From an uncultured Alphaproteobacteria bacterium (GTDB taxonomy: Bacteria > Pseudomonadota > Alphaproteobacteria > Bin95), in NCBI GenBank assembly GCA_938083135.1, contig CALLKY010000066.1, forward strand, positions 3,764 through 67,763: a stretch of DNA of 64,000 bases, in the 5' to 3' direction. The number at the start of each line of letters is the position of its first letter. Position 1 is the first letter of the stretch. Made by a program: the position numbers and the translations under genes. The notes under the pieces are model-generated. The model made no database searches. It saw nothing but the letters and a program-made list of their open reading frames with translations, and was not told the origin of the DNA. This document shows positions 4,917-12,005 of this stretch, piece by piece.

Positions 4917-5555
4917 ATGAGAGCGTCGAGAGAACAGCAGCAGGGTTTTACCCTGATTGAACTGATGGTGGTTGTCTCCATCATCGGCGTTCTGTCGATC
5001 CTGGGCGTCCCCCATTTCCGCGCCTACCTGCTGGATGCGCGCCTGAGTGATGCAGTGCCATATCTAACAGATATCGCCGCCCGCAATCGCATGCACTTCA
5101 TCGAAACCGGCAAATACTGCTGCGACTTAGATCCAACGAACGAAAAAAATATCATTGGCGAACTGAGGGCACCACTCGATGACGTGGGCGACTTTTGCTT
5201 CATGATCGTGTGCAAGGATTCTAACCTTTGCCCAATCGTAACAGCACCCAATTTCATTGCCGCCGATGAAGCAGCAGACGCTGGTGCCGAGTTCGAGGTT
5301 TGGGCACTTCTGCGCCAAGTCTCAACCGGCTCAATTGATGGCCCAAGCGGCAGCACCTGCAAAGTACAGGCGACAAAGCGCCCGCCTACGGGCCTGGCTC
5401 AGCCAGCCGCGTCAGGAAAGCCAGGACGCCAAGGTCAAGCTGTTGTGTTGCGCTACCCAGCGCCCGCAAATGGGTTAGACACGACGACTGGAAACGGTGG
5501 CCATCGCTACAATTGGGACGCTGGGATCAGCAAGACCAATGCGCTCCACCCGTAA
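4917..5555 (+). CDS. type IV prepilin (PilA/PilE-like), Cys-rich
   Basis: Class III signal QQG|FTLIELMVVVSIIGVLSILGVP with Glu5 and Pro22; 6 Cys in the globular domain. Confidence 0.9.
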   Translation: MRASREQQQGFTLIELMVVVSIIGVLSILGVPHFRAYLLDARLSDAVPYLTDIAARNRMHFIETGKYCCDLDPTNEKNIIGELRAPLDDVGDFCFMIVCKDSNLCPIVTAPNFIAADEAADAGAEFEVWALLRQVSTGSIDGPSGSTCKVQATKRPPTGLAQPAASGKPGRQGQAVVLRYPAPANGLDTTTGNGGHRYNWDAGISKTNALHP

Positions 5556-6297
5556 ACCCAGCGCCCTGCAGCGGGGCTTTACTTTGATTGAGGCGATGAC
5601 GGCGGGCCTAGTGCTTTCCATCATCACCATTGGATTGATGAGTGCATGGAGCGTCGCTGGCGCCAACGTGAATGATCTAGTCATCCGTGAGAAAGCTATC
5701 TGGACTCTAAACGGGCATATGGAACGAATTTCAGCCCTGTACCAATTCACAGACTTCGGCGCTTTCGGCGTAGCGACATCCACCGCATACGATTATCCAG
5801 CAGCTTACAATGACACCCGAATGATCTTTGGCACCTTCGCTGATTCAGCAATGGCACCGCCCGGAACACTCCCATTGCTCAAGCCATTCGCAGGCGAGGC
5901 AAATGGGCTCGTTGAATCACCAAACGCCTTCGAAGCCAAAGAAGGGTATCCGGTCGTTCTATTCGATTCCCAGCTTTCATCCGTTCGGAGGAATTATGTG
6001 TGGATTGACCGCCCTAAGAACATTGTCGGCCGTTTAAGCTGGGAGTTGACAGATATCGTTGTGGCTCTGTGCGACAGCGACAACCAACCTGGCGGAAACC
6101 AAAATTGCCGATGCTTAAATTTCGCACATAATGCAGCTGACCCTGCTCCGGGGAAAGATAGCGGCGTATTCTGCAAGGAAATCCAATTGGCGTTGGAATT
6201 TCCGCTGCGCTGGAATGAAGCGGATAATACCGTTAAGGCAATGCCGCAACCGACAGAAATCCTCACCCTGCGAACAATTGTGGGGCGTGTCCAATGA
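5539..6297 (+). CDS. minor type IV prepilin/pseudopilin (PilV/GspI-like)
   Basis: QRG|FTLIEAMTAGLVLSII prepilin motif; overlaps the end of the preceding pilin gene. Confidence 0.8.
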   Translation: MRSTRKPSALQRGFTLIEAMTAGLVLSIITIGLMSAWSVAGANVNDLVIREKAIWTLNGHMERISALYQFTDFGAFGVATSTAYDYPAAYNDTRMIFGTFADSAMAPPGTLPLLKPFAGEANGLVESPNAFEAKEGYPVVLFDSQLSSVRRNYVWIDRPKNIVGRLSWELTDIVVALCDSDNQPGGNQNCRCLNFAHNAADPAPGKDSGVFCKEIQLALEFPLRWNEADNTVKAMPQPTEILTLRTIVGRVQ

Positions 6298-9670: not shown

Positions 9671-10071
9671 TTGCCCTCCGATACTGATCCTTTGAGATCA
9701 ATCTGGCGCTCATAAATCATGGCCGGCAGCCAAAAACTGCTTACGGCTTTAGAGGATGTCATGGCGCGCACTTGCAGGCGGCCCTCATCCAGAATGCGGG
9801 CTTGCATGGTGATCCGATTATCTTGGGCTGCCGCCGAAACTTCAGACGGGCTGAATGCCTCGTGCCGTACCAGTTCCGCCCGCTGCGAGGAGATCGCGGT
9901 ATCAACAGCAGACATTACATCTTTGCGAAATTCAGCCACGTAGAAATGCTCGTGCGCAAGCGGGCCAGCAAACGCCAGCACGAGCAGGCCAAGGCCAATT
10001 GCCCATCCGCTTGCCCGCGCTGTTTCCTTCAGCATCGCCAGTTGGAAGGCGGTTTTGCTGCTCCCCGCCAT
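9652..10071 (-). CDS. single-TM hypothetical protein, possibly a degenerate pilin
   Basis: Start overlaps the secretin stop; one hydrophobic segment followed by Pro and a long amphipathic helix. Confidence 0.6.
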   Translation of the reverse strand: MAGSSKTAFQLAMLKETARASGWAIGLGLLVLAFAGPLAHEHFYVAEFRKDVMSAVDTAISSQRAELVRHEAFSPSEVSAAAQDNRITMQARILDEGRLQVRAMTSSKAVSSFWLPAMIYERQIDLKGSVSEGKWLAGS

Positions 10072-12005
10072 TAGGATTCGTCCTCTTCCAACTCAGAGAG
10101 GAGGCGAAACGGTCGGCTGGTGGTCCGCACTTCAGCGTCTGGATTAGCCAGCATGCTTTCGCTCGCCCGGTCCAGAGTGCGCCTGCGCGACGCCACATAA
10201 TCTGGCGTGCCAAGGCGGGTCGCGATATCGCTGCCGAATGGGCCAGCTCCTTCAACAATGCGCGGCGTAATGAAGAAAATTGTTTCAGACAACGCGCTGC
10301 TGGCGGTGTTTTCTTTGAACAGACGCCCAAGCACCGGCACGTCTTTCAGGCCCGGCACGCCAGATTCCCGCTCGCGTCGTTCATCATCGAACAGGCCGCC
10401 AATAATGTATGTGCCGCCATTCGGCACCAGCACTTCGGTTTGAACCTCCTGGGAGCGCACGTCGATCTGTCCGAACACACCCGCGCCCGGTGCCGAATTG
10501 ATGGCATTCAAGTTCAAACGGATCAGATTTCCCTCACCAAGGGCAATCGCGGGGACGATAGACGGCGTGATCTCAAGCGTTAGCCCAGTTTCAATCTGCT
10601 CCAAGCTTTGGCCCTGGTCGCCGCCAGCATCCACCTGCACGAAAACATCCTGGGATCGTGTGATCCGGGCCGTGCGGTTATCCAATGTCACCAGGCGCGG
10701 GGCCGAGAGCACCTGCGCTTTGTTTTCTTCCGCCAGCGCCTTCAATTGCACCTGCAGAATGCTTGATGCACCGCGCACAACGAAGGCCGCAATCGTGCTG
10801 GATGCACCAACTGCGGGAAGCAGAGACAGGGCGTTCAAGCCATCGGAATCAAATAGATTGGCCGCGTCATTACCGACCTGCCCACCGCTGCTACCAGTAT
10901 CCCCGGCAGCGCTGCCATTGGCATTACCGCGCTGGGTCGCGGAACCCCTGAGCGCTACACCCAATTCCTCTGCCACGCCAAGGCTGGCCGTCGCGATAAT
11001 CACCTCAATCTCAATCATCTTCAGCGGCTGATCGAGTTCGCGGATAACCTGGGCAATCGTGGCCACGTCGCCCGGGCTGCCGCGCACGATGACGGAATTG
11101 GTGCGGCGATCAATCGAAATACGGGGACGGGCCAATTGTGAGACCCGGCGTTCGAATGCAGCGTCGGTTTCACCAGAACGTGCAGCAGCTGAATCCCCGT
11201 CGCCACCAATGTTCAGGTCGCCAATGATCGCTTTCAGCGTATCGGAGATGCCCGGCACTGTGACGGACCGGCCATGAAACTGCCGCGTCGTTTCACCCAC
11301 ACTGGCAAATCGCAGCGGGATCACGCGGACTTTGGCGTTGGCGATCTCAGCATAGGTATCCGCTTCCAACTGGTCGCGACGCGCCGCCTGCTGTTGCTTG
11401 ATCGCTGCCTGATCCGTCTCGATACGAAGGGATGCCGCTGTTTCGACCTGATTGATCAGAGCGGTGATTTCCTTCACCCGGTCGGACCGGCCCTTAAGGG
11501 AAACGGTATTCGTCGCGGCATCAAACGCGACGCCTTCCAGACCAAGCCCAAACCGGACCAGCATTTCTCTCAGCGCCGGATAGCGGGTATGCGTCAGCGC
11601 GATAAAAACCCGCTCCGGCGGATCGAAATTCACGGCGGCGTCTTTGTAGACAGTAACCGTGCGGGTATCCGCATTATATTCATATGCCAGCCCGCGCTCA
11701 GTCATGAGCTGCTCAAACGCCTGGCCCGGGCGCACTTTATCGAACCGGAGCGAAATTGGCCCTTCAACCCCAGGCCGGAAAATCGCCGAAAGCCCGTTGG
11801 CCCGCAGCAAAGAGCGCAGGATAGATCGCACGTCGTCATCAACCGAAGTACGGCTAAAACGGACATCTGGGCGCCACGGGATTGTGTCTGCAAAAGCGGG
11901 TGCAGACAGGCCCAATAACGCGATGGCCACGATGAGCTGCGCACATTTTCGCCGCAATCTCCATGCAACGATCCGCGCCAGCGTGTGTTTAAGGTCTAAC
12001 AACAT
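10071..12005 (-). CDS. outer-membrane secretin with T3SS SctC (YscC/HrcC/EscC)-like N-terminal architecture
   Basis: Signal peptide AFA|DTIPW; N0-N1-N3-like layout; VIPLRFASVGETTRQFHGRSVTVPGISDTL; secretin core VLSAPRLVTLDNRTA, TGLTLEITP, IIGGLF, GVPGLKDVPVLGRLFK, FFITPRIV. Confidence 0.92.
   Translation of the reverse strand: MLLDLKHTLARIVAWRLRRKCAQLIVAIALLGLSAPAFADTIPWRPDVRFSRTSVDDDVRSILRSLLRANGLSAIFRPGVEGPISLRFDKVRPGQAFEQLMTERGLAYEYNADTRTVTVYKDAAVNFDPPERVFIALTHTRYPALREMLVRFGLGLEGVAFDAATNTVSLKGRSDRVKEITALINQVETAASLRIETDQAAIKQQQAARRDQLEADTYAEIANAKVRVIPLRFASVGETTRQFHGRSVTVPGISDTLKAIIGDLNIGGDGDSAAARSGETDAAFERRVSQLARPRISIDRRTNSVIVRGSPGDVATIAQVIRELDQPLKMIEIEVIIATASLGVAEELGVALRGSATQRGNANGSAAGDTGSSGGQVGNDAANLFDSDGLNALSLLPAVGASSTIAAFVVRGASSILQVQLKALAEENKAQVLSAPRLVTLDNRTARITRSQDVFVQVDAGGDQGQSLEQIETGLTLEITPSIVPAIALGEGNLIRLNLNAINSAPGAGVFGQIDVRSQEVQTEVLVPNGGTYIIGGLFDDERRERESGVPGLKDVPVLGRLFKENTASSALSETIFFITPRIVEGAGPFGSDIATRLGTPDYVASRRRTLDRASESMLANPDAEVRTTSRPFRLLSELEEDES

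Follow-up and report, generated by a model that had tools for sequence, protein, structure and literature searches.

A probable T4aP-like filament machine in an uncultured alphaproteobacterium with a native secretin akin to the injectisome secretin SctC

INTRODUCTION

The closest described relatives of the system reported here are the type IVa pilus (T4aP; secretin PilQ), type II secretion systems (T2SS; secretin GspD), the mannose-sensitive hemagglutinin (MSH) pilus (secretin MshL), and the injectisome of the type III secretion system (T3SS), whose secretin is SctC (YscC/HrcC/InvG). A hairpin in the N3 domain is typical of InvG, and T2SS pairs a single major pilin with four minor ones, of which the final one has no Glu5 (GspG with GspHIJK). 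Known pilotin families are those of PulS/GspS, AspS, the tetratricopeptide repeat (TPR) proteins PilF/PilW, and the MxiM/YscW type; the pilotins of T4aP include TPR lipoproteins such as PilF/PilW/Tgl, and the pilotins MxiM and YscW bind the secretin C terminus. Examined here is a locus at positions 4917 to 12005 of a 64,000-nucleotide stretch (the window) from an uncultured alphaproteobacterium (assembly GCA_938083135.1, contig CALLKY010000066.1, positions 3,764 to 67,763), in which a run of prepilin genes converges on a run that begins with a secretin gene. The genome probably encodes one type IV filament machine, half of which, the outer membrane (OM) and priming parts, is contained in the window; the machine belongs to a distinct T4aP-like lineage with a native gate that is kin to SctC.

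According to Abby and Rocha 2012 (PMC3459982), secretins were recruited to the injectisome at least three times; the main SctC group is their third cluster, for which the source is left as "possibly from T4P." Secretin co-option is summarized as "from Tad and from T2SS" by Denise et al. 2019 (PMC6668835), whose secretin tree shows the tight adherence (Tad) system, T2SS, and T4aP as monophyletic and who leave 884 "generic" systems unassigned. The origin of secretins is named as a goal for future study in a section of the primer by Beeby (2019; PMC6711533). A full-text literature search returned no paper that describes the present machine or a sister group of SctC with pilus linkage; in supplementary tables, machines of this sort may appear under "generic" or T4aP.

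RESULTS

The predicted secretin (644 amino acids [aa]; 10071 to 12005, minus strand) was classified with Pfam, NCBIfam, AlphaFold2 (AF2), Foldseek, and phylogenetic trees. Pfam placed it in the secretin superfamily through matches to Secretin (PF00263; 132.6 bits, cutoff 27.5) and Secretin_N (PF03958; 66.7 bits, cutoff 28.2). It scored below the cutoffs of all four NCBIfam secretin profiles, namely, PilQ (TIGR02515; 208.2 bits versus 284.35, covering only residues 203 to 585), SctC (TIGR02516; 202.5 versus 238.45), GspD (TIGR02517; 188.1 versus 351.35), and MshL (TIGR02519; 79.4 versus 250.2). Only the SctC model was aligned end to end, with residues 54 to 585 matching model positions 6 to 462/463. 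In the genome scan the SctC profile gave the window secretin 194.9 bits, compared with 255 to 320 bits per piece for true SctC rows, or 407 to 509 bits summed for five matches in two pieces.

The AF2 model of the secretin, built from a 49-row alignment with a mean predicted local distance difference test (pLDDT) score of 80.4, comprised a signal peptide (residues 1 to 39), N0 (50 to 121), N1 (131 to 185), a long helix of 49 residues (174 to 222), N3 (225 to 324), the barrel (330 to 584), and two tail helices (601 to 620 and 633 to 641), with a hairpin between the first strand and the first helix of N3. No AMIN domain was found by Pfam, and the model contained no N2, a single ring-building domain lying between N0 and N3. 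In Foldseek searches with this model, printed ranks 1 to 11 were all InvG chains (E, ~2e-28); the next listed structures were PulD at rank 18 (4e-25) and then Vibrio cholerae PilQ (1e-24). An N-terminal PW..F motif and an N3 hairpin reading ..V.VPG(I/V).. were common to the window secretin's family, to several deep lineages, and to SctC, while the aligned PilQ rows had a gap. The N0-N1-N3 build with an N3 hairpin that characterizes SctC-type secretins was supported by the AF2 secondary structure, the InvG matches in Foldseek, and the alignment block. The earlier note had called the protein an injectisome-type secretin from its mature start DTIPW, a segment of N3, and its short periplasmic part. 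Both sequence features are present in the translation (residues 40 to 44 and 229 to 258), the N3 segment aligns with fetched SctC sequences and shares their motif, and the N0-N1-N3 arrangement without N2 or AMIN was borne out by the AF2 model and Pfam. As a statement of membership the label is not supported, since the protein scores below the SctC cutoff, falls outside the SctC clade, and is nearer by sequence to solved PilQ and GspD.

Reference rows for the secretin trees were labeled by curated profiles (7 SctC, 12 GspD, 12 PilQ, and 8 MshL), with Tad secretins labeled by PF13629. FastTree analysis of 180 rows gave three groups: SctC (support, 100), GspD with MshL and PilQ (99), and the window family of 87 rows (95). 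Under the LG+C20 posterior mean site frequency (PMSF) model in IQ-TREE, a quick search of 80 rows and 507 near-full-length columns, with Tad as the outgroup, joined the family, SctC, and a few deep lineages in one clade (Shimodaira-Hasegawa-like approximate likelihood ratio test [SH-aLRT], 99), with PilQ next. The same clade was recovered in a careful search restricted to N3 and the secretin domain (55 rows, 346 columns; ultrafast bootstrap [UFBoot] 100/SH-aLRT 100; stem, 0.75), and the same split was found in a quick search of N0-N1 alone (50 rows, 141 columns; SH-aLRT, 93). This clade of the family, other pilus-linked lineages, and SctC excludes PilQ, GspD, MshL, and Tad. Within the careful tree, the SctC clade (100/99) excludes the window secretin, the family joins row P0186 (100/99), and row P0195 is sister to SctC (94/91). 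GspD forms a separate clade (100/99), and MshL groups with GspD, far from the family. In approximately unbiased (AU) tests on the N3 and secretin domain tree, the grouping of SctC with GspD was rejected (P = 0.00057), as was that with PilQ (P = 0.0083); SctC with Tad, which would place SctC outside all filament secretins, was weakly rejected (P = 0.038). Assignment of the system to Tad or MSH was ruled out by the NCBIfam scores, the ATPase search, and the tree.

Profile searches and gene context were examined alongside the trees. Among 301 Pseudomonadota genomes, all 11 of the best SctC profile matches below the cutoff (156.6 to 197.7 bits) were members of the window family; five unlabeled rows in the SctC clade scored 417 to 486 bits on TIGR02516. 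As a control, three of three metagenome loci in the SctC clade were flanked by T3SS genes (SctD, SctN, SctQ, SctV, or SctU). Linkage to T3SS genes therefore coincides with the SctC clade, and pilus gene linkage is seen in the family and in one or more of the deep lineages.

Searches with the secretin returned 227 family matches among 8,000 scored candidates (90% clusters), the 120 listed being all full length or nearly so, and 159 representatives at E ≤ 1e-30 in a 50% library. The relatives are inconsistently annotated as GspD, PilQ, YscC/HrcC, "type 3 secretion system secretin," or hypothetical proteins. In 11 of 12 stretches from relatives with enough flanking sequence, the secretin was linked to the same filament genes. 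All of the parts lie within ~17 kb in Minwuia sp. (locus L019), whose secretin is 58% identical to that of the window; the four genes between platform and secretin there encode a 647-aa protein (X), a 283-aa protein (Y), a histidine kinase-FHA protein, and a PP2C phosphatase. Family secretins were also found in other Pseudomonadota classes (n = 10), and some relatives were named Magnetococcales by their sources; Zavarzinia sp. and Minwuia sp. are among the other names given to relatives, and the Magnetococcales carriers are metagenome-assembled genomes. When eight Magnetococcales-type stretches of 13 to 20 kb each were compared by tblastn, the lipoprotein gene adjoined the secretin gene in all eight, as it also did in L017, L019, and L007. 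A pilin, ATPase, or platform gene was present in seven of the eight, most of which also carried kinase-FGE, X and Y, or minor pilin genes; in the remaining stretch (L085), the secretin and lipoprotein genes alone were seen. L101 and L103, metagenome loci from a lineage further removed from the window's, encode, in one direction, ATPase, platform, pilins, X, Y, secretin, and kinase-FGE, with PP2C also in L103. The PilM/N-like (X) and PilO/P-like (Y) genes stand directly upstream of the secretin gene in both, the order of pilMNOPQ, and PilM-N and PilO-P are fused in relatives. No conserved candidate substrate was found in the fetched loci (Magnetococcales-type stretches and metagenome loci).

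The ATPases of seven of these systems and of L101 formed one clade (SH-aLRT, 100), apart from nine equivalog PilB (99) and 14 equivalog GspE (98) sequences. Because these ATPases form a separate clade, secretin and motor have diverged together; since the secretin-filament linkage is kept as well, the parts have traveled together. The conservation of the gene set in relatives argues for a coherent filament lineage and not a chimera. This filament lineage is scattered across Alphaproteobacteria, Magnetococcales, and other phyla, and the secretin is its native gate, not an injectisome part.

A contig scan with the single secretin as the query had returned just four close loci, and a wider genome search was used afterwards. 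The system is uncommon and patchily distributed: of 400 further alphaproteobacterial genomes, sampled evenly, three contained a family secretin (E ≤ 1e-60), and close copies were found within the window's genus in genomes G001, G003, and G009. A metagenome scan with one generic pattern gave 80 loci, most of which best matched PilQ-type references; six of these (L101, L103, L104, L106, L115, and L118) were followed further. In G006, of the same genus (L009, contig C23), a 357-aa frame joins secretin residues 1 to 181 to residues 478 to 644 by an in-frame internal deletion, with flanking genes conserved, and G002 (C31:27456-27584) retains a 43-residue secretin remnant with a TGA stop. From these sequences, the secretin appears to be decaying in both sister species. 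Magnetotactic carriers of the family or of deep branches occur across phyla and include Magnetococcales, "Candidatus Magnetaquiglobus," and the Nitrospirota member "Candidatus Magnetomonas plexicatena"; a common habitat, gene transfer, or biased sampling may lie behind this pattern.

The remainder of the machine was sought elsewhere in the genome assembly (163 contigs, 99.99% complete). The window secretin was the only one in the whole genome. A search with PF00437 returned one T2SSE ATPase over the cutoff and one further match of 20.9 bits; with this PilB/GspE-like gene alone over the cutoff, no PilT-type retraction ATPase was found by that genome-wide search. FHIPEP (SctV/FlhA), the one T3SS component searched genome-wide, had zero matches. 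With one secretin, one PilB/GspE-type ATPase, and no FHIPEP, the genome appears to be without a T3SS, and the earlier observation that the 64 kb contain no sct genes holds genome-wide for FHIPEP. A hidden T3SS lacking only sctC was ruled out by the absence of FHIPEP matches.

The window locus is only part of the system: the ATPase, the platform, a fifth pilin, and the alignment proteins are encoded on other contigs. A second locus on contig C100 contains a fifth prepilin gene (N_methyl), a kinase-FGE gene, the ATPase gene, and the gene of a T2SSF platform protein (159.6 bits). The ATPase (777 aa) matched T2SSE at 394.6 bits and carries an MshEN domain (30.6 bits). Its best NCBIfam match was GspE (476.4 bits versus 438.2 for PilB), and its best match among solved structures was PilB (338.5 versus 317.9 bits); for the platform, GspF was narrowly ahead (245.9 versus 240.6 bits). 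ATPases of these systems (L004:9995-12328; also L019, L084, L086, and L090) are long, at ~620 to 900 aa as frames, with an N-terminal extension of 200 to 300 residues that is poorly conserved beyond close relatives and has no Pfam match. The Ser/Thr kinase-FGE-sulfatase-like fusion on C100 (L004:12204-13871) has homologues in L019, L083, L086, L088 to L090, L101, and L103; it is conserved inside the pilus cluster across phyla, often with PP2C and histidine kinase-FHA genes. This kinase-FGE/PP2C/FHA set suggests control of the type IV filament via threonine phosphorylation.

Homologues of the Minwuia proteins X and Y were found on contigs C5 and C49. X corresponds to two open reading frames (ORFs), one PilM-like at the end of C5 (85 to 1509, minus strand) and the other PilN-like where C49 begins (117 to 830, plus strand), and the Y homologue is also on C49; homologues of the histidine kinase-FHA and PP2C pair are on C59. 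X is one fused gene in Minwuia and in Magnetococcales, and the PilM-like frame on C5 has its own stop; in the window genome X is either naturally split or broken by assembly. In the ESM Atlas, X fell with PilM_2/PilN clusters (feature score, 0.94 to 0.96), with structure rows reaching the bar for PilM_2, and Y fell with PilO/PilP clusters (0.92 to 0.93; template modeling score, 0.36 to 0.46); both sets of matches are leads only. Pfam gave no match for Minwuia X or Y, and a Protein Data Bank (PDB) sequence search gave none for X. The parts are scattered over at least four contigs in the window genome, so it is from their synteny in relatives that they are taken to function jointly. The components that define a "generic" type IV filament system in Denise et al. 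2019 (PMC6668835) were all found, with an ATPase, platform, and N_methyl pilin on C100 and the peptidase and secretin, which count as accessories, in the window.

The putative OM lipoprotein (8825 to 9670, minus strand) has the lipobox LSGC with Cys24 and a predicted beta-barrel at residues 47 to 213 (AF2 and Foldseek). All 11 homologues from relatives keep the lipobox Cys, and they share a core of ~165 residues rich in invariant aromatic residues. The AF2 barrel was modeled at pLDDT ~88 to 97 over residues 51 to 210. Its top Foldseek matches were the Escherichia coli lipoprotein YmcC (2in5; E, 2.4e-5) and two "YmcC-like" Bacteroidales proteins (range, 2e-5 to 1e-4); the five matches at E ≤ 0.001 were chains of YmcC (2in5), 3fzx, and 4fvs, and no pilotin was among the matches listed. 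Pfam returned DUF3108_like alone, at 23.6 bits and below the cutoff, with no TPR or other pilotin family, and a PDB sequence search returned a single 16-bit match.

The secretin ends in an acidic tail with the motif EEDE(S). Complex prediction with secretin residues 586 to 644 and lipoprotein residues 25 to 215, both supplied as alignments, gave a median score of 0.89 (runs, 0.32, 0.89, and 0.90), compared with 0.00 for the best of three controls; of the solved complexes, 58 of 80 pass the score mark used, compared with 2 of 110 mismatched pairs, counts that apply roughly here, as custom alignments were used. The runs agreed in at least 45% of contacts, with a partner pLDDT of at least 82. In the predicted interface, secretin residues 636 to 644 (the last nine) lie inside the barrel, where they meet residues that include the invariant R106, W177, and Y199 and the nearly invariant H142 and Y197. 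The model supports a lipoprotein that clasps the acidic C-terminal tail of the secretin. Independently of the complex model, tail and lipoprotein co-occur. The tail was present in 13 of 13 family secretins from genomes, 11 of which have the lipoprotein gene alongside, the contigs of the other two (L029 and L037) being too short, and in 41 of 49 family representatives. It was absent from L101 and L103, both without a lipoprotein homologue, and from nine SctC, two PilQ, and two GspD rows. From the complex prediction and the tail co-occurrence, we infer that the lipoprotein works like a pilotin or anchor.

The gene order at the locus was established from the ORF list and translations. Six genes on the plus strand (4917 to 8831) encode four prepilins, a PilZ protein, and a prepilin peptidase, and three genes on the minus strand (12005 to 8825) encode the secretin, a small transmembrane protein, and the lipoprotein. 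The two runs meet tail to tail and have 7 bp in common (8825 to 8831), the peptidase gene stopping at 8831 and the lipoprotein gene at 8825; the junctions inside both runs overlap or abut. The coupled pilin operon converging on a secretin operon, as described in the earlier note, was confirmed by ORFs, Pfam, and NCBIfam, and its tight gene junctions were confirmed by the ORF coordinates.

Class III signals were present in the translations of all four pilin-like products (G/FTLIE, G/FTLIE, G/FTTVE, and G/FALLL), and Pfam N_methyl was significant in one of the four, prepilin 1, the others being identified from their signals by eye; the window pilins are long (~210 aa). Prepilin 1 (212 aa; 4917 to 5555, plus strand) has the signal QQQG/FTLIELM, with matches to N_methyl (32.8 bits) and TIGR02532 (32.3 bits), and is conserved in L017, L019, L083, L087, L088, L101, and L103. 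The minor-pilin-like prepilin 2 (5497 to 6297, plus strand) probably starts at an internal ATG at 5539, which leaves a short leader before G/FTLIEAM; it has a weak ComGE match (19.4 bits, NCBIfam), and by tblastn its homologues adjoin prepilin 1 in L017, L019, L083, L087, and L088. Prepilin 3 (6294 to 6926, plus strand; G/FTTVELA) has no Pfam or NCBIfam match, with homologues in L017, L019, L087, and L088. The prepilin-like product 4 (6927 to 7562, plus strand; G/FALLLVM) is without Glu5 and occupies what we take to be a GspK/PilX-like position; homologues were found in L017, L019, L083, and L088, and the L017 copy, at 52% identity, marks it as the least conserved gene of the locus.

The gene for the PilZ domain protein (7487 to 7942, plus strand) probably starts at 7562, overlapping the stop of prepilin 4; its product matched Pfam PilZ over the cutoff (39.7 bits, residues 46 to 135), with homologues in matching position in L017 and L019. 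The prepilin peptidase of PilD/GspO type (7950 to 8831, plus strand) matched A24_N_bact (110.6 bits) and Peptidase_A24 (85.4 bits), both over the cutoffs. The small 139-aa protein (9652 to 10071, minus strand) has one N-terminal hydrophobic helix and no Pfam or NCBIfam match; its homologues sit between the secretin and lipoprotein genes in L017, L007, L009, L019, L086, and L090. Upstream of the pilin operon, the product of an ORF at 3391 to 4170 (plus strand) ends in a long Gly/Ser-rich tail.

DNA nearly identical to the locus (0.96 to 1.00 of sampled words) was detected in public metagenome runs from several studies, with the labels marine, seawater, estuary, marsh, ballast water, soil, and rhizosphere. 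The organism seems to be widespread, and the assembly may itself derive from some of these runs. Contigs from four metatranscriptome runs matched the locus at ≥99% identity and gave depth in 30, 28, 24, and 12 of 30 bins, a bin without depth being uninformative; these contigs are short and shallow (depth, 2 to 12) and may derive from DNA in the libraries, and they were not counted as transcription. A contig from run X16 that joins 4948 to 8384, skipping 3,435 bases, has 27 letters on its shorter side and is probably an assembly artifact.

DISCUSSION

The locus belongs to a type IV filament machine whose ATPases form a clade of their own, whose lipoprotein is predicted to bind the secretin tail and would be of a new type, and whose control set of Ser/Thr kinase, PP2C, FHA, and PilZ is conserved. 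It resembles T4aP in having an ATPase of PilB/GspE type, a platform with two domains, a prepilin peptidase, one major and several minor pilins, and candidate PilM/N- and PilO/P-like proteins, which stand directly upstream of the secretin in L101 and L103 as in pilMNOPQ. A helix that links the N-terminal domains to N3 is a further likeness, as described for PilQ (PMC7545093). It differs from T4aP in that PilT/PilU was not found in the PF00437 genome search, its secretin has N1 and the N3 hairpin but no AMIN and falls below the PilQ cutoff, its ATPases fall in a clade apart from equivalog PilB, the presumed PilM-N and PilO-P occur as fusions in relatives, its lipoprotein has no TPR or other pilotin family by Pfam, and a kinase-FGE gene is conserved in the cluster.

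The resemblance to SctC lies in the N0-N1-N3-secretin build with a C-terminal tail, the PW..F motif, the N3 hairpin, the joint clade (100/100), InvG as the best Foldseek match, and a secretin tail predicted to be bound by a beta-rich lipoprotein. Unlike SctC, the window secretin scores below the SctC cutoff and outside the SctC clade in a genome without FHIPEP, its partners are pilus proteins and not SctD/SctJ, it has an extra long helix (174 to 222), and its lipoprotein has a YmcC-like fold that belongs to no known pilotin family. One plus four pilins with a Glu5-less member, no retraction ATPase found, and a secretin with N0, N1, and a predicted tail-binding lipoprotein are traits shared with T2SS, from which the system departs in its low GspD profile score, the lack of N2, the separate GspD clade, the rejection of SctC with GspD, an ATPase outside the GspE clade, and no matches to GspC/L/M (Pfam, and ESM Atlas on X and Y). 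As in the MSH pilus, the ATPase carries an MshEN domain, but the MshL profile score is far below its cutoff and the MshL clade groups with GspD.

It is very improbable that a pilus operon took over an injectisome secretin, so that the gate would be an SctC serving a pilus, as in the hybrid or reverse co-option entertained in the earlier note. Such a history would fit the N0-N1-N3 build, the InvG chains at the top of the Foldseek results, the end-to-end alignment with the SctC profile, and the automatic annotations that name some relatives YscC/HrcC. It is opposed by the score below the SctC cutoff, the exclusion from the SctC clade (100/99), the lack of FHIPEP in the genome, the linkage of the secretin to filament genes in 11 of 12 stretches, and the coclustering of the ATPases with the secretins as their own lineage. 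Moreover, several pilus-linked lineages (the family and the P0183/P0185 group with L101 and L103) occur in the clade, and the outgroups PilQ, GspD, and MshL are all filament secretins, so that the simplest ancestral state is pilus linked. An ordinary but divergent PilQ or GspD, whose kinship with SctC would be an artifact of sampling, alignment, or long branches, is also unlikely, if less so. In favor of this reading, the top match by NCBIfam and by PDB sequence is PilQ, the annotation of one relative reads pilQ, the long helix before N3 recalls the coil of V. cholerae PilQ described in PMC7545093, the same source states that the phylogenetic signal of secretins is weak, and reference sampling was narrow. 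Yet the split recurs over two alignments, three programs or models, and two nonoverlapping parts of the protein, and long-branch attraction would draw SctC to Tad or MshL, not to this family. The shared hairpin insertion and N-terminal motif do not depend on any tree, family members outscore all PilQ and GspD proteins on the SctC profile in the 301 genomes, and the protein falls below the PilQ, GspD, and MshL cutoffs without AMIN or N2.

A further alternative concerns function only and is compatible with the evolutionary reading: the machine may carry out T2SS-like secretion via a short pseudopilus and not form a surface pilus, which we regard as rather unlikely, albeit clearly more plausible than either of the two alternatives above. 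One major and four minor pilins with the last lacking Glu5, no PilT-type ATPase in the PF00437 genome search, GspE and (narrowly) GspF as the best NCBIfam matches of ATPase and platform, and an N1 domain and pilotin-like partner of the secretin would all suit it; alignment proteins that are PilM/N/O/P-like and not GspL/M/C-like (leads only), PilB as the best solved match of the ATPase, long pilins of ~210 aa, and no candidate substrate conserved in the loci speak for a pilus.

Several points weigh against the preferred reading of a distinct T4aP-like lineage with a native gate akin to SctC. The PilQ profile scored slightly above SctC (208.2 versus 202.5 bits), and by sequence against solved structures PilQ (132 bits) and GspD (101) exceeded MxiD (48) and InvG (40). 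The references comprised Pseudomonadota and the window protein's own best matches, leaving out type IVb pilus, phage pIV, and chlamydial SctC secretins and T4aP of other phyla, and the Tad root is an assumption. Other inner nodes are weak (77/21, 86/75, and 73/51), so SctC nested within the pilus-linked lineages and SctC as their sister are not separable. The gene contexts cover the family and the P0183/P0185 group (L101 and L103), not P0190, P0195, and P0200, and the AU hypotheses were framed after the first tree, two of them from the literature. The PilM/N/O/P assignments come solely from ESM Atlas leads, the parts are on at least four contigs in the window genome, and the filament and any secretion are predicted from gene content. 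None of the outcomes named beforehand as refuting the earlier reading (a secretin inside a GspD or PilQ clade, a T3SS lacking only sctC, or no pilin linkage elsewhere) occurred.

In the proposed working of the T4aP-like machine, PilD would cleave five prepilins, and the four window minor pilins would prime a filament of the C100 pilin, which the PilB/GspE-like ATPase would polymerize and extend on the platform. The PilMN/PilOP-like proteins may couple this motor to secretin N0, the filament or its cargo would pass the secretin gate, and the lipoprotein would clasp the secretin tail as pilotin or anchor. MshEN binds cyclic di-GMP in MshE, and threonine phosphorylation gates the H1 type VI secretion system of Pseudomonas; assembly here may likewise be gated by cyclic di-GMP (PilZ and MshEN) and by Ser/Thr phosphorylation (kinase/PP2C/FHA). 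Since no PilT was found, the product would be a nonretractile pilus or a T2SS-like pseudopilus.

One of the two options in the earlier note, kinship of the locus with the donor lineage of the T3SS secretin, fits the trees (support, 100/100, 99, and 93) and the AU tests. Because the family and its sister pilus-linked lineages are the closest SctC relatives found here, the SctC ancestor was probably recruited from this kind of pilus machine. That it came from this particular T4aP-like lineage, with the window machine and its relatives (Magnetococcales, Nitrospirota, and others) as living descendants of the donor, is a tentative proposal to which we give slightly less than an even chance. The link to the origin of SctC is well supported but not yet decisive. 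A pilus-linked secretin lineage that groups with SctC offers a concrete object for the study of that origin, through its genomes, its structure in comparison with InvG, and its partner lipoprotein. If this lineage was the donor, the N0-N1-N3 build, the N3 hairpin, and the lipoprotein-held tail would predate the injectisome, which would have inherited a ready-made gate-plus-pilotin logic and not have evolved it anew.

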